Origin: a virus
Virus genome (UHGV): UHGV-1652557
Reading direction: 5' to 3' (one strand)
DNA length: 10,143 nt
Position 1 is the stretch's first letter; every line of letters starts with the position of its first letter. Below the pieces are notes generated by a model. The model did not search any database. It saw nothing but the letters and a program-made list of their open reading frames with translations, and was not told the DNA's origin. A program made the translations under genes and the position numbers. This document shows, piece by piece, positions 95 through 10,143 of this stretch.

Positions 95-796
95 TCATAC
101 AGTTGCTCCTTTCAGTCCGAACTTCGCTTTGATTTCTGCGATCTTCGCCAGAGCCTGTGCACGATTTAGAGGCCTACCGCCCATGACAGGAAGTTGTTTT
201 ACTGGTTCAGGTATCGCCTCACCACGGTTAATTCGCGCGGTCATACAGGTCAGCTCATCGGCAGCTTTACGCCGTAATTCCGCGTCAGTCAGCGCATTGG
301 CCCGCATGTTCTGGTACAGGTTGGTAACCAACCAGTAGTGCGCGTTTGATTTCCATGGATAAGACTCTGCGTCCGGATACAGGCCACGCTTCCGGCAATA
401 CTCGTAAACCATATCAACCAGCTCGCTGGCGTTTGGCAGTCCGGCGGTAACGGATGCTTCTTCCCGGCACCAGGCGACAAACTGCCCGGGTGATGGCAGG
501 AATGGTCGATTCTGCCGACGGGCTACGCGCATTCCTGCGTTAACCTGTTCCATTGTGGTGATCCCGTTTTCCCGGAAAGCCAGAACCCACTGGCGGCGGA
601 TTTCGTTCAGTTCGTTCTGGTCCCGGTTAGCCAGGCTCGCCGGGAAAGTTGCCAGTAACTGGCTGAACACACCGTTGATGATCCGCGCTACCTGCTGTAC
701 CTGCGGCTTTTCGTCGTACTGTTCCGGCATGTTGTTGGCGATCCGGCGCATCTGCTCACGGTCAAAGTTAACCATCTGTGCGGCGATGTTTTTCAT
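95..796 (-). CDS. P: Replication protein P (lambda P-type DnaB helicase loader)
   Basis: 233-aa ORF whose translation matches lambda P as I recall it, with only a few substitutions. Its start ATG (796-794) overlaps the O stop (795-793) in an ATGA arrangement. Identity was not computed. Confidence 0.93.
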   Translation of the reverse strand: MKNIAAQMVNFDREQMRRIANNMPEQYDEKPQVQQVARIINGVFSQLLATFPASLANRDQNELNEIRRQWVLAFRENGITTMEQVNAGMRVARRQNRPFLPSPGQFVAWCREEASVTAGLPNASELVDMVYEYCRKRGLYPDAESYPWKSNAHYWLVTNLYQNMRANALTDAELRRKAADELTCMTARINRGEAIPEPVKQLPVMGGRPLNRAQALAKIAEIKAKFGLKGATV

Positions 797-1722
797 AAAT
801 CCACCCCATAAATCCAGTCAGTGTTTGTCAGGTCGAGTTTTGATTTTCCGGCTGTCACGCCAGCCTGTTGCTTGTTACGGTTGATTTCGAGTTGGGTCCA
901 CTTGTCGCGGAGTTTGGCCGGACTTAGCACGTTACCGGACCAGAAGTTGTCCTGGCATGCCCAGCGGAACAGCACGCACATGTCGCGGTGGTTACGTCCG
1001 TCACGTTCACGCATCAGGCGGATATCGTTAGCCCACCCTGCAAAATTCGGTTTTCTGGCTGATGGCGCGATGGTCTTCACCATGTCAAACATCCACTCTG
1101 CGGCGGTCAGGTCTTCTGCTGTCCCCCACCTGCTGCCGCTCTGAATTGCAGCATCTGGTTTCTCCACAGGAAGATCGTTTTCTGGTTGGTCAGAGGATTC
1201 GCCAGAATTCTCGGACGAAAAAGGTTTTATATTGTCTTTTGTTAGTTTGTCTTTTGTGTTTACCTGATTCGGGTAAACGCCTTTACCTGATTTGGGTAAA
1301 CTTTTCTTACCTGATTCAGGTAAATTTACCTCTTTCAGGTAAACTTTATTTTTCTTACCTGATTCGGGTAATGTTGACCATTCACTGACCACATTATTAA
1401 TGCCGATATTCCGCCCGCTCTGAATAAGAATCCCACGCTTTACCAGAACGCTTTTTGCAGCAGAACACTTGTGCGGCAATATCCCGGTCAACTCGGAAAG
1501 TTGCTCGTTGCTCACCCAATCCAGTTTTTTATTAAAGCCATATGTTTTGCGCATGACAGCCAGGAAGACCAGAAGCTGGTGCTGTGTTAATCCGGCCAGC
1601 ATCACAGCTTCCAGCAACTCATTTGCAATGCGCGTATAACCATCATCGAGATCTGCCACGCGCGGCTCCTTTTGTGCCGCATCCGGCACTGGAAAATTGA
1701 ATATCTCAGCAGTGTTTGCCAT
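793..1722 (-). CDS. O: Replication initiator protein O (mosaic: non-lambda N-terminal half, lambda-type C-terminal P-interaction domain)
   Basis: The ORF is open from 1812, but the internal Met at 1722-1720 gives MANTAEIFNF, which aligns with the lambda O N-terminus MTNTAKILNF, and is preceded by a GGGAGG RBS. The DLDDGY motif is present. The C-terminal ~90 aa matches lambda O from memory. Iterons lie inside the gene as in lambda ori. Confidence 0.88.
   Translation of the reverse strand: MANTAEIFNFPVPDAAQKEPRVADLDDGYTRIANELLEAVMLAGLTQHQLLVFLAVMRKTYGFNKKLDWVSNEQLSELTGILPHKCSAAKSVLVKRGILIQSGRNIGINNVVSEWSTLPESGKKNKVYLKEVNLPESGKKSLPKSGKGVYPNQVNTKDKLTKDNIKPFSSENSGESSDQPENDLPVEKPDAAIQSGSRWGTAEDLTAAEWMFDMVKTIAPSARKPNFAGWANDIRLMRERDGRNHRDMCVLFRWACQDNFWSGNVLSPAKLRDKWTQLEINRNKQQAGVTAGKSKLDLTNTDWIYGVDL
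1257..1378. repeat. Origin of replication: five iterons, each an inverted repeat TTACC-N6/7-GGTAA (e.g. TTACCTGATTCGGGTAA), flanked by an AT-rich tract at 1215-1256
   Basis: Direct reading: TACC cores at 1261, 1284, 1308, 1327 and 1356 with 19-29 bp spacing, inside the O coding sequence. The adjacent AT-rich stretch (aaaaaggttttatattgtcttttgttagtttgtcttttgtgttt) lies downstream in the O reading direction, as in lambda ori. Confidence 0.8.
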
Positions 1723-1808
1723 AATTCCTCCCGCAATGAGTGTGTTACGATTTGCACCTGAAAGTCGGTTCTGTTCCCGCAGACCGACTTTCGCCATTTC
1801 TGAACCTG

Positions 1809-2348
1809 TCATATTGCCCCCAGCATGGTGGTCACCATCGCCATTAATGGACCAGCCAGATCCGGGTCCACACGAAACATCGACACAATACCTTCACTCA
1901 TTTCCTTCAGTTTCTGGTGGCGTGGTGCGTTGAGAATGACAGCCTGTTTTGCCTCACTGAGTTCCTTTTCCATTTCAGCCAACCGAGTCATGAAGCTATC
2001 CTGCTCAACCAGGTAACCGCGATATTCCAGCGGTAGTACCGCCAGAATTGCCGGGGTCAGTTCACGCACGTTATTTCGGTATTTTTCAGAATCGAATTTG
2101 TTATCGAGGAAGCGGAACAGCTTCTGGCGTGCACGGCTGACATCATCAGGGAAATCGATGGTGCCGTCGCCCTGCTCCCGATACTCATTCACAATGAGTG
2201 CGGCAACGACATCCTGATTATCTACAGCCGACCAGGCGCGGACGGCATCACGGATTTTTTCGTGGCCTGGAGCTTGTTTTGTTTGAGAACGATTTATCAC
2301 CGCAGTCGGAATAAATCCGCTAGTCTGTTGGTATGTAAGTGGTTGCAT
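1809..2348 (-). CDS. Regulatory protein in the cII position (179 aa; not lambda CII; possibly a phage 186 CII/CP76-like or YdaT-like family member)
   Basis: ORF with an AAGGAG RBS 6 nt upstream of the ATG at 2348. Its stop overlaps the start of the long O ORF. It sits between cro and O. Family assignment is from memory and uncertain. Confidence 0.6.
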   Translation of the reverse strand: MQPLTYQQTSGFIPTAVINRSQTKQAPGHEKIRDAVRAWSAVDNQDVVAALIVNEYREQGDGTIDFPDDVSRARQKLFRFLDNKFDSEKYRNNVRELTPAILAVLPLEYRGYLVEQDSFMTRLAEMEKELSEAKQAVILNAPRHQKLKEMSEGIVSMFRVDPDLAGPLMAMVTTMLGAI

Positions 2349-2417
2349 AATTGACTCCTTTAGTTTGAATTGACTGTTAAGTTGATTGCTTATTGTTAAA
2401 GAGCGTGAAATGGAAAT

Positions 2418-2648
2418 TTAAGCTGCGTTCTTTTCGGTGTGTGGAAACAACTTCGGAAGATCCGGGCGAATCTGGTATGCCTTCACAACTCCACCAGTAG
2501 CCGTAACAATGCTGCCGACATGTTCAGGGGATACCTTTGCTTTGTTGTGAAGCCACTTATAGACGGCCTGCTGTGAAACTTCGCAGGCATCGCCTAGTTT
2601 CTTTTGTGAACCAACGATATTGATCGCTGTTTTGATTGCTGGGTTCAT
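2418..2648 (-). CDS. cro: Cro-like HTH transcriptional regulator
   Basis: 76-aa ORF transcribed divergently from the repressor gene. HTH-like segment QKKLGDACEVSQQAVYKWL. GGAGG RBS 5 nt upstream. PR-like promoter immediately upstream. Confidence 0.8.
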   Translation of the reverse strand: MNPAIKTAINIVGSQKKLGDACEVSQQAVYKWLHNKAKVSPEHVGSIVTATGGVVKAYQIRPDLPKLFPHTEKNAA

Positions 2649-2752: not shown

Positions 2753-3442
2753 ATGAAAACAACACTCTCAGAAAGACTTAAAGAAGCCAGATTAGCGCGA
2801 GGCCTTACACAAAAGGCGCTTGGGGATTTGGTCGGGGTTAGCCAGGCTGCTATTCAGAAAATCGAAACAGGGAAAGCTAACCAAACAACTAAAATCGTGG
2901 AGATCGCGAACGCTTTGGGTGTGCGCGCAGAATGGTTATCTTCTGGCGTTGGAAATATGTCAGACAGTACAGTGCAACCAATACAATCAACTGTCAGCCA
3001 TTCCAAATACTTCAAAATTGACGTTCTTGATATAGAAGTCAGTGCCGGGCCAGGTGTAATCAACCGTGAGTTTGTAGAAGTTCTACGCTCGGTTGAGTAC
3101 TCGTTTGACGATGCTCGTCACATGTTCGATGGCAGGAAGGCGGAAAATATCCGCATCATTAACGTGCGAGGTGACAGCATGTCAGGGACGATCGAACCAG
3201 GTGACCTGCTGTTCGTTGATATCACTGTTAAATCTTTCGACGGTGATGGCATCTATGCGTTTCTGTACGACGACACTGCCCATGTAAAACGTCTTCAAAT
3301 GATGAAGGATAAGCTGCTGGTTATCTCTGATAACAAGAGCTACTCGCCGTGGGACCCGATCGAGAAAGACGAGATGAACCGGGTGTTCATATTCGGTAAG
3401 GTCATTGGAAGCATGCCGCAGACGTACAGGAAGCATGGTTAA
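2753..3442 (+). CDS. cI: CI-like prophage repressor (N-terminal HTH, C-terminal LexA-like S24 autopeptidase domain)
   Basis: 229 aa. HTH LTQKALGDLVGVSQAAIQKIETGK. Ala-Gly candidate cleavage site in EVSAGPG. GDSM serine motif and downstream VKRL lysine motif typical of the LexA/CI S24 family. Confidence 0.92.
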   Translation: MKTTLSERLKEARLARGLTQKALGDLVGVSQAAIQKIETGKANQTTKIVEIANALGVRAEWLSSGVGNMSDSTVQPIQSTVSHSKYFKIDVLDIEVSAGPGVINREFVEVLRSVEYSFDDARHMFDGRKAENIRIINVRGDSMSGTIEPGDLLFVDITVKSFDGDGIYAFLYDDTAHVKRLQMMKDKLLVISDNKSYSPWDPIEKDEMNRVFIFGKVIGSMPQTYRKHG

Positions 3443-3671
3443 TTTATCTACGACTTAAGGGAGCGAAGGTTAAGGTTTATACCACTCGGATTAGATATTG
3501 CACTAAATTCTCTATAAGAACGCCAAATCTGTTTGCATATTTCAGTAAATATTCTCGTTGTTAGCTGAGATTTGTTGCTACTGTCAGCAAAATGTCCCCC
3601 TATCTCGTAGCGGTTTTTATTTCGAATCATTATGTTAAGATGTTTCTGATTATAATGAATGGAAACATAAA

Positions 3672-4052
3672 ATGAGAAAAATCCTAATCGCTGCCATGAT
3701 GGCATCTGTATTGGCTGGGTGTGCTTCTTCAGGCAACCAGCAACTCAAAAATGAAACTGAAATTAGTGTCCAGTCTAAACTTCAGGAAGGTAAAACAACC
3801 AAGAATGAGGTTAAATCTTACTTTGGTTCTCCTGATGCTGTTTCATATACTGACAGTGGAAACGAGATCTGGAAGTACGCCTTTGCAAAAGTAAAAGTTA
3901 ATGGCACCACTTTTATTCCATTCTATGGATTATTCCATAATGGAACGAACGGTACGAAAAAAGAACTTACTATTCTTTTTAACGATGACACGATTAAGAA
4001 ATACACAATGTCAGAAACCCAAATAAACTCGAAATCAGGTTGGGCTGACTGA
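3672..4052 (+). CDS. Lipoprotein moron with a BamE/SmpA-OmlA-like domain (candidate lysogenic-conversion or superinfection-exclusion protein)
   Basis: 126 aa. Signal peptide with lipobox LAGC (MRKILIAAMMASVLAGC). Mature part shows a BamE-like pattern (KTTKNEVKSYFGSPDAVSYTDSGNEIWKYAF ... LTILFNDD), from memory. Preceded by an AT-rich 228-bp spacer with a perfect TATAAT at 3651-3656. Followed by a strong terminator. Confidence 0.85.
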   Translation: MRKILIAAMMASVLAGCASSGNQQLKNETEISVQSKLQEGKTTKNEVKSYFGSPDAVSYTDSGNEIWKYAFAKVKVNGTTFIPFYGLFHNGTNGTKKELTILFNDDTIKKYTMSETQINSKSGWAD

Positions 4053-7312: not shown

Positions 7313-7534
7313 ATGGCAGACATAATTGATTCAGCATCAGAAATTGAAGAATTACAGCGCAACACAGCAATAAAAATGCGCCGCCTGAACCACCAGGCTA
7401 TATCTGCCACTCATTGTTGTGAGTGTGGCGATCCGATAGATGAACGAAGACGACTGGCCGTTCAGGGTTGTCGGACTTGTGCCAGTTGCCAGCAAGATCT
7501 GGAGCTTATCAGTAAACAGAGAGGTTCGACGTGA
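7313..7534 (+). CDS. TraR/DksA-family C4 zinc-finger protein (lambda Orf73-like RNA polymerase-binding regulator)
   Basis: 73 aa with CxxC-(17)-CxxC (CCECGDP...CRTCASC), typical of TraR/DksA C4 fingers. Same size and position as lambda orf73. Confidence 0.82.
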   Translation: MADIIDSASEIEELQRNTAIKMRRLNHQAISATHCCECGDPIDERRRLAVQGCRTCASCQQDLELISKQRGST

Positions 7535-7938
7535 GCGAAATTAACTCTCAGGCACTGCGTGAAGCGGCAGAGAAAGCCGGTGAAGATAAGTGGCAGGCTA
7601 AAAAAATAAATGGTGATTTTTTCGTTATTCGTCACGGTAGTTATACAAGACAGCATGGCTACACATCGTATCAACCCATTGCGGAGATTGATTGTAAGCC
7701 AGTCCGGGATTTTGTTGCCAAGGCTAATCCGGCTACCGTGCTGGAATTACTGGATGAACTGGAAGCAGCAAAAAAGCGCATTGCAGAACTGGAAGCGCGG
7801 GAAATACTGCTCCCGGAACGTAGCAGCATGCTTCATCGAACAGATTTTCACGATGATTACCAAACGGTAATGGCATACAAAGTTTCTGAAGTCATCGATG
7901 CAATCCGCGCTACTGGCATTCGCATCAAAGGAGAGTGA
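7531..7938 (+). CDS. Ead/Ea22-like protein
   Basis: 135-aa ORF with a GTG start overlapping the preceding stop (GTGA). Coiled-coil segment PATVLELLDELEAAKKRIAELEA resembles the Ead/Ea22-like family, from memory. Confidence 0.65.
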   Translation: MSEINSQALREAAEKAGEDKWQAKKINGDFFVIRHGSYTRQHGYTSYQPIAEIDCKPVRDFVAKANPATVLELLDELEAAKKRIAELEAREILLPERSSMLHRTDFHDDYQTVMAYKVSEVIDAIRATGIRIKGE

Positions 7939-7939
7939 G

Positions 7940-8695
7940 ATGATTCACTACCACGGTGGGCCTATTACTCCTGATACGTGCGCAATGAGAGCATGGAAAG
8001 GGCGACATGCGTTTATCAGTTTTGCGCATTCAGGCCAGATCAATCTCGCGGCTGAATACTGTCAGTCGTTCGCGCTGGACAACGGTGCATTCACCGCCTG
8101 GAAAGCAGCTGGCAAAAACAAAATCGACTGGAGCGATTACTACGAGTTTGTTGCTCGCTGGAAGAATCACCCAGGATTCGATTTTGCCATTATCCCGGAT
8201 GTTATTGATGGCGGAGAGGAGGAAAATGATGCGCTTCTGAATGAGTGGCCTCACGGAAAACTAGCTGGCGTTCCAGTGTGGCACATGAATGAAAGTGACG
8301 AGCGATTTATTCATTTGTGCAATGAGTTTCCGCGAGTGGCTATCGGTAGTTGTGGCGACTATGACGTAAAGCGCCCAACTCTTGCGGTAGCCAGAATGAA
8401 AGACCTGATTCGTCACATTGTTGATGGGCATGGTCAGCCGGTTACGAAACTACATGGATTGCGCATGTTAAATCCGCTGATATTCACAAAATTACCCTTA
8501 GCCAGCGCAGATAGTACGAACGTCGCTCGAAACATCGGTATTGATAAAGCCTGGTCTGGGGCTTATGCACCTGCAAGTAAAGAGACACGCGCAGCATTAA
8601 TGGTAGAACGGATTGAGGCACACAATAGCCCTGGTTCTCTTGCGTATTGTGAACAACGCGACCGCTTTGAAATGCAATTGCAACTAGCAGTTTAA
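7940..8695 (+). CDS. TGT-fold protein, candidate DpdA-like 7-deazaguanine DNA transglycosylase
   Basis: 251-aa reading from the ATG at 7940 with an AAGGAG RBS. The upstream ATG at 7898 overlaps the Ea22-like gene by 41 nt. Motifs LDNGAF (D47, nt 8078-8080) and D191-STNVARNIG (nt 8510-8539) resemble the tRNA-guanine transglycosylase motifs DSGG[FY]Q and FDCVxPTRxARxG, from memory. No C-terminal zinc subdomain. Functional call is tentative. Confidence 0.6.
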   Translation: MIHYHGGPITPDTCAMRAWKGRHAFISFAHSGQINLAAEYCQSFALDNGAFTAWKAAGKNKIDWSDYYEFVARWKNHPGFDFAIIPDVIDGGEEENDALLNEWPHGKLAGVPVWHMNESDERFIHLCNEFPRVAIGSCGDYDVKRPTLAVARMKDLIRHIVDGHGQPVTKLHGLRMLNPLIFTKLPLASADSTNVARNIGIDKAWSGAYAPASKETRAALMVERIEAHNSPGSLAYCEQRDRFEMQLQLAV

Positions 8696-8705
8696 GGACT
8701 AACAA

Positions 8706-9281
8706 ATGACCACTATTACCAAAGAACGTATTGAATTGTTCATTAAAAATCCGCTTGAAAACGGGCTTACTCGTGGCGAACAAATGGAACTGGCACGAAT
8801 TGCACTGGCATCACTGGGAGCAGAATCTGTAAGCCAAACTTACAACTTGCCAGAATTAATCGAAGGCATGGAGGTTTCCATTGATGTAAGCACTTGTGAT
8901 GCGGATTTAGGTAATCGCTATTTCGGTACCGTCACCGAGGCGTTAGAACTTGATACTGCCAAGAATGGTTACATCCTCCTGGTTCAGGACGCAGAGCCAA
9001 ACTTCGATATAAATGGCAATTCTCCGGTAACTCCGGATGGTTGGGTTATAGTGCCGAAGAAACTAACCGCTGAGAACGGCGCTAAGGGTGTGCTATCCGG
9101 TGAATTTTCAGAAACTACGTTTATAAGCTGCCCGGAATGCTTTGGTGATGATGATTGCGAAACTTGTGACGGCAGCGGAAGAATCGAAATCAAGGTTCCA
9201 GTCAGTTGGACAACTATCAAAACTATTTGGGCTAAAGGGTGTGAGTACTTTTCAATAGTAGCACCGCAGCAAGATGGGTGA
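8706..9281 (+). CDS. Strongly acidic hypothetical protein with a C-terminal zinc-ribbon (CPEC-x6-CETCDGSG)
   Basis: 191-aa ORF, AAGGA RBS 7 nt upstream, 10-bp gap after the preceding gene. About 31 Asp/Glu against 14 Lys/Arg. C-x2-C-x6-C-x2-C-x-G-x-G motif similar to DnaJ-type zinc ribbons. Confidence 0.8.
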   Translation: MTTITKERIELFIKNPLENGLTRGEQMELARIALASLGAESVSQTYNLPELIEGMEVSIDVSTCDADLGNRYFGTVTEALELDTAKNGYILLVQDAEPNFDINGNSPVTPDGWVIVPKKLTAENGAKGVLSGEFSETTFISCPECFGDDDCETCDGSGRIEIKVPVSWTTIKTIWAKGCEYFSIVAPQQDG

Positions 9282-9342
9282 TGAAAACAAGTATTTATAA
9301 CTTAAAAGCATTAAAAAATCGCTTATAGATCAAAAGAAATCT

Positions 9343-9384
9343 ACGTCAAATATTACTATATTTCAATGTGTTATAATTACCCCG
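9343..9384 (+). promoter_or_regulatory. Candidate sigma70 promoter with extended -10 (TGTTATAAT)
   Basis: TGnTATAAT at 9369-9377 in an AT-rich spacer after the stop at 9281. Weak -35 TATTTC at 9349-9354. Confidence 0.4.
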
Positions 9385-9407
9385 TCCATAAAATGGGGGG
9401 ACACAAA

Positions 9408-9650
9408 ATGTTCAAACGCTGCATCACCAAGTGTGGAAGCACACCTGACATCCAAGCTTTTATTAATGAAGATGGTAAGCTTGTTGTTGAGAGGAGTGGT
9501 CCTTTTATTAGCAAACAACTTATCATTACCTCTCCAGCGGAGATGGCCGGGGAATGGATAGTTTCTGAACCAGAGGAGTTGCACATCCCGCTTCCTTATG
9601 GCCCTCAGGGACTGATTTATAACCGTTATGTTCAGAAGGAGGCGGGTTGA
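9408..9650 (+). CDS. Small hypothetical protein (80 aa)
   Basis: ATG at 9408 preceded by a GGGGGG SD-like run (9395-9400) and the candidate promoter. No recognisable family. The antisense 152-aa ORF has junk-like composition. Confidence 0.4.
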   Translation: MFKRCITKCGSTPDIQAFINEDGKLVVERSGPFISKQLIITSPAEMAGEWIVSEPEELHIPLPYGPQGLIYNRYVQKEAG

Positions 9651-9930
9651 CAATGTCAGGCATAACATCGCCGAGAAATCGAAAGAAAAACAGAACAAGG
9701 TAAACGTTGACCTTGCAGCATCAGGCATGGAGTACAGAGAGCGCCTTAACATACCTGTTATCACTGAGCAGGTATCATGAGAGCAACCTGAGCACTCACG
9801 CGAGTATTTCATGGAGCGCATCAGATACTATCACGAGCAGTCGTTAAACATGCCCAAGGGAAGCAACCCATGGTATATCGATATGGATGAACAGAACGCC
9901 AAGAAGTAAACGCAATTTGAACGAATGCGA

Positions 9931-9987
9931 ACCCGCCGAGTGCGGGTTTTCTTTTATCTGAACTCGCTACGGCGAGTTTTGTTTTAT
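9931..9987 (+). terminator. Tandem rho-independent terminators closing the leftward (PL) transcription unit
   Basis: T1: ACCCGC (9931-9936) / GCGGGT (9942-9947), then TTTTCTTTTAT. T2: AACTCGC (9961-9967) / GCGAGTT (9972-9978), then TTGTTTTAT. Both are oriented for plus-strand transcription. Confidence 0.78.
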
Positions 9988-10143
9988 GGCGATGATAAAT
10001 GCACTTCCGAGTTACAGGTGAATGGAATGGAGAACCATTCAACAGAGTTATCGAAGCCGAGAACATCAGTAGACTGGCCCCCTGAATCACCAGACAACCA
10101 ATATCACTTATTTAAGTGATAGTCTTAATACTAGTTTTTAGAC

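Follow-up and report, generated by a model that had tools for sequence, protein, structure and literature searches.

In phage lambda, the binding site for CII lies within the first codons of the cII gene and the oop antisense RNA is made beside it; the CII protein of phage 186, which is similar in size to the 179-residue protein described here, is an activator of lysogeny establishment. Lambda CII itself, a protein of 97 residues, forms an unusual dimer of dimers and recognizes the direct repeat TTGC-N6-TTGC (PMC9986795). For the YdaT proteins, publications from 2021 to 2025 describe the structure, the operator and a CII-like activity. Jurenas et al. found CP-933P YdaT to be non-toxic, homologous to phi80 CII and able to switch on a PRE-like reporter (PMC8630535); the structure of its tetramer has been solved and its operator mapped as TTGATT-N6-AATCAA (Prolic-Kalinsek et al., PMC9986795). 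In E. coli K-12, the YdaT protein of the Rac prophage recognizes ATGATT-N6-AATCAA, a box that spans the ydaT start codon, and activates the reverse promoter of the repressor gene racR 29-fold in a box-dependent manner, with further binding around the start of ydaS (a footprint from -60 to +40 around the ydaS ATG) (Wons et al., PMC11879457). The Rac and CP-933P proteins are 30% identical, yet each binds the box of the other (PMC11879457), and in each the alpha3 recognition helix has a conserved arginine, Arg57 in Rac YdaT and Arg60, which contacts a base, in CP-933P YdaT (PMC9986795).

Here, we compare these systems with a gene in a 10,143-nt stretch of DNA, the window, from the virus genome UHGV-1652557. 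Within the window is an early region of lambdoid type; its 'rightward' direction is that of the minus strand. Along this strand, a cro-like gene of the YdaS family (2418-2648; 76 aa; PF15943, E 6.6e-17, and PHROG_35), the first of the rightward operon, is followed directly by an ORF of exactly 179 codons in the ORF list of the window (1809-2348), then by O (793-1812 in its long annotated form, from the ORF list) and by P (95-796, from the ORF list and profile matches). The gene for the CI repressor (2753-3442, plus strand), which matches HTH_3 and Peptidase_S24 profiles and is the presumed target of establishment transcription, is divergent from cro. The ORF therefore occupies the cII slot, as the preliminary description had it, between the cro-like gene and O on the minus strand, and this synteny is established. 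A Shine-Dalgarno sequence, AGGAG within AAGGAG, can be read directly at 2355-2359 (minus strand), 6 nt upstream of ATG 2348. Since the full-length N-terminus, MQSLTYQQ, and a length of 177-187 residues are kept in homologues from many genera of Enterobacteriaceae, and since codons 1-16 are open in 57 of 57 loci, the long 179-residue form is, on this comparative evidence, the real product.

Between 1700 and 2760 the window and Escherichia phage PhiR26_1, whose copy of the gene bears the annotation 'cII', are 100% identical, and 15 more E. coli phages encode the protein at 95-97% identity. The phi80 cII product is 66% identical over all 179 residues, and the 'CII' proteins of mEp237, HK639 and HK225 are 51-66% identical. 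What might pass for an oversized cII is the classical phi80-type CII: the phi80 gene (JX871397/NC_021190 gp48; X13065) sits in the same slot, in the order gene 30/cro, cII, M3 RNA and gene 15/O, and shares with the window type the N-terminal extension, the conserved 5' DNA and a palindrome upstream of ninB, although the phi80 cI/cro immunity module is unlike that of the window. The 1988 phi80 record names the gene cII, with a shorter annotated product of 132 aa. The gene is accordingly a member of a family already known, annotated cII in GenBank beforehand, and not a new kind of regulator.

Elsewhere the window holds several features worth recording. The rex slot downstream of cI is taken by a lipoprotein-like moron of 126 aa (3672-4052, plus strand; PHROG_3135) with a signal-peptide/lipobox-like N-terminus, and the ORF at 4329-4739 matches only Kil, over ORF residues 60-135. 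After ~7531 the window departs from PhiR26_1 (7531-10143), the integrase region giving way to two genes, one resembling queuine tRNA-ribosyltransferase (7898-8695; PHROG_887) and one of PHROG_60 (8706-9281); neither an integrase gene nor a pI-like site nor cIII turned up within the window.

Profile searches place the protein in the YdaT family. Pfam matches residues 67-154 to YdaT_toxin (PF06254) with 104.5 bits (E 4.3e-30), above the curated gathering cut-off of 21 bits, and PHROGs assigns the protein to PHROG_163, 'CII-like transcriptional activator' (E 1.4e-66). No NCBIfam model matches it, and in the Pfam search neither Phage_CII (lambda CII, PF05269) nor Phage_CP76 (186 CII/CP76, PF06892) gives a match at E <= 0.1. 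The preliminary description had predicted a regulator of a family other than that of lambda CII, which the profiles bear out, and had proposed such searches, which assign the protein to a regulatory family; of its two guesses, YdaT proved correct by both profile and fold (3c4r/8bt1) and 186 CII/CP76 did not. Lambda CII occupies the same gene slot, presumably with the same role, but shares neither sequence nor family with the protein, and 186 has a P2-like genome organization unlike that of the window.

The fold agrees with the profiles. In an AlphaFold2 monomer model built on 32 homologues, residues 1-25 are disordered (pLDDT ~31), residues 28-110 form a confident helical, POU-like HTH domain (pLDDT 85-92), and the C-terminal helices, including those predicted at 119-138 and 145-160, are less certain (pLDDT only 52-67); helices in this low-confidence region, residues 119-160, are predicted to correspond to the alpha6 oligomerization helix. 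Foldseek against the PDB retrieved only 3c4r and 8bt1 (probability 1.0, identity 28%, TM 0.64-0.68 normalized by target, all other matches at E > 1), and the same two, 8bt1 being CP-933P YdaT, are by sequence the sole relatives with a solved structure. The alpha2-alpha3 loop of the model, ~10 residues (59-68), falls within the range of 9-23 residues published for YdaT (PMC9986795). In the recognition helix, R72-x-R-Q-K-L-F-R79-F-L-D stands against R53-N-T-Q-K-I-F-R60-W-L-D in CP-933P YdaT, so that R79 aligns with Arg60 and R72 with Arg53; among the 32 homologues, R72 is invariant and R79 nearly so.

Short YdaT proteins (~140 aa) align from residue 28-29, and the 179-residue form thus consists of a YdaT core with a 27-residue N-terminal extension (residues 1-27, disordered) and ~20 C-terminal residues, among them an additional hydrophobic helix (residues 162-177). 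CP-933P YdaT (141 aa, ~28% identity) has the same Pfam family and fold and likewise follows a YdaS-type cro, but is without the extension and the last ~20 residues. Rac YdaT, a tetramer held by alpha6 (PMC11879457), is also a short form; in a partial match, the YdaT of the Rac-like phage Rac-SA53 is ~35% identical to the protein described here. Family membership and fold are hence established, and the gene is, as judged from its sequence, a phi80-type CII, the long form of the YdaT HTH transcription-factor family. The hydrophobic C-terminal helix DLAGPLMAMVTTMLGAI (residues 155-179; 1809-1883, minus strand) is missing from the crystallized short YdaT, and the block just before it, APRHQKLKExSEGI, is the most conserved part of the subfamily; the hydrophobic region could be a protease or membrane-targeting determinant.

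Between cro and the 179-codon gene, the promoter and terminator scans of the window found no intrinsic terminator, and the RNA of the 72-nt spacer folds no better than shuffles (z -0.6), in keeping with what had been stated before; a Rho-dependent terminator of the lambda tR1 type would be compatible with the sequence. A boxA-like CGCTCTTTAACAA can be read directly in the spacer (2393-2405, minus strand), RNA folding places no boxB hairpin after it, and no N gene was recognized within the window; boxB/N antitermination was accordingly discarded, the spacer being without the hairpin and the window without an N gene. An Rfam E-value scan of the whole window returned chance-level matches only, with no oop or nut family. 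A junction of ~70 nt, GCCGCTTAACGGCGGCCCTAACCACGAAAGGGAAAGCA|ATGCATTCACTTGCGTATCAACA, from which the window spacer differs, recurs in loci L002-L007, L011, L026 and L052-L062 and in phi80 (L070, ~3577-3640); it is more conserved than either flanking gene and common to different cro and cII alleles, and may serve as a linker in recombination, or may be regulatory or nut-like. On the other side of cro, the cI-cro intergenic region holds a palindrome, ATGGTTGT-N9-ACAACCAT (2687-2711), and related direct repeats, TAAAAC(T/C)(A/T)TGGTTGT (2680-2741), which are presumably the OR operators for CI and Cro.

Given the conserved recognition helix and the single operator shared by distant homologues, the published YdaT box was scanned over 57 homologous loci and the window, from -400 to +560 around the start codon. 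One position was outstanding, +48 to +65, or codons 17-22 of the gene itself, where the 57 loci score 8.4 of 12 on average (background 2.95 +/- 0.67) and where 40 of 58 sequences have their top-scoring site, alone or in a tie. Of 4096 palindromic 6-N6-6 motifs, TTGATT ranks ninth at this position, those above it being its own one-letter variants. Individual loci come close to the published operator, with 11 of 12 in L037 (TTGATT-TTTGAA-AATCAG) and 10 of 12 in L017, L019 and L020 (ATGATA-AATCGC-AATCAA). Codon usage carries the same mark: of the 57 loci, 48 have the rare ATA as codon 18, nine have ATT and none has ATC, against a share of 15% for ATA at the other Ile codons of these genes, and the third base of codon 21 is invariant. 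The copy in the window (2283-2300; TTGAGA-ACGATT-TATCAC on the plus strand) matches TTGATT-N6-AATCAA at 8 of 12 positions, which on its own is no better than chance (~0.75 expected per 270 nt). Conservation of the box across the family is nonetheless established, and we infer that the internal box is a binding site for the 179-residue protein; part of the conservation of the 5' coding region could reflect protein or translation-initiation constraints.

At a distance of 21 bases beyond the box on the leftward strand, TAnnnT is found in 57 of 57 loci although the encoded amino acids vary, and the third base of codon 9 is T in all 56 loci counted, through five codon types, compared with 30% T at the third base of comparable codons elsewhere. 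In the window this hexamer is TAGTCT (2321-2326, plus strand), which matches TATAAT at only three of six positions; our best guess is that it serves as the -10 of a pRE-like promoter that would fire leftward under control of the activator, the centre of the box then falling near -41.5. Read in this way, the operator and the establishment promoter would both lie in the activator's first codons, a lambda-like arrangement. The geometry is without precedent in the YdaT family: the CP-933P box is downstream of the predicted PRE, with the main operator at the end of ydaS and not inside ydaT, and ~190 bp separate the Rac box from the activated promoter (PMC11879457). An alternative candidate reverse promoter from the consensus scan, TTCACA-17-AACAAT inside cro and antisense to it (2482-2510, plus strand), is ~182 nt from the internal box and in this resembles Rac PracR4 at ~190 bp (PMC11879457), but it does not rise above shuffle expectation and phage 4A7 has no equivalent, so it was set aside as the main reverse promoter and is kept as an alternative only.

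Other sequences in and around the gene were considered and rejected. A TTGAnT cluster at 2351-2387 was dismissed as the main operator, because 4A7 and PhiR68_2 encode a 97%-identical protein behind an unrelated 30-nt spacer; their homology to the window breaks exactly at the cII start codon. The 9-nt TATGTAAGT matches the -10 region of lambda pRE, and this was treated as a coincidence, the key T of the hexamer not being conserved. Inverted repeats within the gene, CGGATTT/AAATCCG, are too short to tell from chance, and a search for a lambda-style pRE/pI/paQ motif among the cII 5', int-upstream and Q regions of PhiR26_1 gave no convincing shared bipartite words.

The best site in the window is a second YdaT-box-like repeat from the same scan, GTGGTT-AATCCG-AATCAA on the plus strand (2659-2676), which matches at 10 of 12 positions, 11-28 nt upstream of the ATG of cro. 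In phage 4A7, where the cro module is unrelated, a 10/12 site spans the cro start codon, and across the family cro-proximal boxes are modestly enriched (17% versus 5% at a score of at least 9). Rac YdaT, in line with the candidate sites here, has a box at the 5' end of its own gene and sites around the start of the cro-like gene, whereas CP-933P YdaT reportedly does not bind the repressor-cro intergenic region.

The window ends in P, and evidence from the nin region comes from relatives. Whole-genome scans of PhiR26_1 and 4A7 each gave one perfect 12/12 box, 165 nt upstream of ybcN/ninB (L071, 13371-13388, and L072, 42998-43015, respectively); shuffling each genome 100 times produced no 12/12 site. 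In phi80 a perfect palindrome, TTGATA-N6-TATCAA, is located 162 nt before ybcN (L073, 38718-38735). Further perfect 12/12 boxes are present in phage 82 (L074, 50-67) and in prophage loci (L003 at 7582, L012 at 7717, L019 at 7403 and L029 at 8054), while HK639 and CobraSix have TTGATT-N6-AATCAA, KO-TP1 has TTGATT-N6-TATCAA and HK225 has the phi80 palindrome. In all 12 (pro)phage sequences aligned, relatives with this type of cII, the TTGAT and ATCAA cores are identical and the bases between them vary, and homology among these phages starts exactly at the box. Two more boxes of 11/12 occur in PhiR26_1 (L071), one ahead of the defence gene PD-lambda-1, in a divergent intergenic region (11436-11453), and one inside ybcV (19234-19251); the chance expectation is ~0.2 sites of at least 11/12 per genome.

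The left half-site of the nin box is the -35 of a rightward promoter upstream of ninB/ybcN, TTGATT-17-CATAAT, which was marked as putative in the 1996 phage 82 record and is followed by a hairpin that covaries between phages. A box placed over the -35 and spacer of this promoter predicts repression. Co-occurrence of the box region and this type of cII is established: the phi80-type gene is carried by all 25 complete phage genomes in which the match to the module reaches the box region and by none of the 22 in which it stops short, where reaching means that the match starts within the first 25 bases of the module, the box itself having been inspected in 12 sequences. As the cI/cro modules differ among the phages with the nin box, CI and Cro are unlikely ligands. 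Phi80-type CII therefore probably also represses, outside the window, the ninB...Q operon, a function that would be comparable to that of lambda paQ.

Taken together with the published homologues, these sequence comparisons make it likely, in our judgement, that the YdaT-family CII binds the boxes, switches on leftward transcription of cI and favours lysogeny, with the binding, the position of the promoter and the choice of activation over repression being what we infer. CII would be made from the pR transcript, after cro, would by homology oligomerize through its long helix and would, again by homology, bind inverted repeats of the YdaT type, (A/T)TGAT(T/A)-N6-(A/T)ATCAA, for which the degenerate copy in its own codons and the site upstream of cro are the candidates. 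Bound CII would then start transcription at an establishment promoter without a -35, using the TAGTCT hexamer, and this transcription would run leftward, antisense through cro and into cI, as the equivalent of lambda pRE, thereby favouring lysogeny; repression of the nin-region promoter by CII would in addition delay the late genes. A more specific version, in which CII is bifunctional, activating through an operator and a -35-less promoter within its extension codons and shutting off ninB...Q through a perfect box that doubles as the -35, we hold only tentatively, as possible but rather doubtful.

The main competitor is that the protein is a YdaT-family DNA binder that acts chiefly by repression or roadblocking, at targets such as the ninB/Q-operon promoter, pR/cro or host promoters like rcsA, rather than by activating establishment transcription of cI. 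The perfect boxes of relatives, which overlap a promoter -35 and spacer, have the geometry expected of a repressor, and the best site in the window adjoins the cro ribosome-binding site; Rac YdaT lowers racR expression via intergenic operators and controls host rcsA (PMC11879457), and YdaT has been termed a 'repressor' in Acta Crystallographica D (PMC9986795). Against this, both characterized homologues activate the reverse promoter of the repressor gene (PMC8630535, PMC11879457), and the box that is conserved in 57 loci lies within the gene, where lambda keeps pRE, which together leave repression as the chief activity unlikely.

Much less probable still is a role as toxin in a toxin-antitoxin pair of the YdaS/YdaT kind, which the Pfam name ('Bacterial toxin ydaT') and the NCBI names would suggest. 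Rac YdaT is indeed toxic when expressed, overexpression leading to filamentation and cell death, but this is a regulatory effect through RcsA, whose host gene the protein also controls (PMC11879457); CP-933P YdaT is non-toxic and the pair does not form a toxin-antitoxin system (PMC8630535, PMC5917428). The fold, moreover, is that of a POU-like HTH, and the gene is placed in a complete lambdoid early operon.

The relation of the gene to O has also to be revised. An ATG in the O frame at 1812 does overlap the cII stop literally, as ATGA (1812-1809), in agreement with the preliminary description, but this long start is probably unused: an in-frame ATG is present there in only 2 of 57 related loci, and in phi80 a stop ahead of gene 15 closes the corresponding long O frame. 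Residue 31 of the long O is where the alignments to PHROG_277 and to lambda O begin. The start of O is probably ATG 1722 (793-1722, minus strand), which has a GGGAGGA ribosome-binding site and keeps the PHROG_277 match; GenBank uses the long start, ATG 1812, for PhiR26_1 and 4A7. With O starting at 1722, the true gap between cII and O is ~86 nt, and the tight linkage claimed for the two genes was overstated.

This gap is occupied by an antisense RNA unit of the oop/phi80-M3 type (1697-1802, plus strand), and the long form of O, which spans its covarying hairpin, is disfavoured for that reason. The unit consists of a leftward promoter, TTGAAT-17-CATAAT (1697-1725), with a -10 that overlaps the true O start, and a hairpin (1760-1792; -25.7 kcal/mol, z -3.9) followed by a T-rich tail. 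In 49 of 56 loci the hairpin recurs, always equally far from the cII stop and irrespective of the replication gene downstream, with compensatory changes in 10 of its 17 base pairs, and as phi80 carries the annotation 'M3 RNA, homolog of lambda oop RNA' in the corresponding place, the unit is by sequence and position a known element. That the 179-residue protein might instead be an accessory factor of the O/P replication module, translationally coupled to O, draws on the ATGA overlap with the long O frame and on the gene travelling with O in the PhiR/4A7 phage group, but is scarcely credible given that the long O start is not conserved, that in other loci the gene is followed by replication genes of several unrelated kinds and that profile searches give no match to a replication-protein family.

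For annotators, both the name 'toxin YdaT' and the long O start are misleading and call for caution. To the published work the present comparison adds that the YdaT box can be traced into the long-form subfamily, inside the 5' codons of the gene itself, and that a perfect operator is positioned on the -35 of the nin/Q promoter and found only in phages with this type of cII; the embedded box, the candidate promoter at -41.5 and the operator at the nin promoter are new comparative leads. Should the bifunctional reading be true, establishment of the repressor and delay of the late genes would be coupled through one type of operator, without an antisense RNA of the paQ kind. The leads bear on how CII proteins other than that of lambda wire the decision between lysis and lysogeny.
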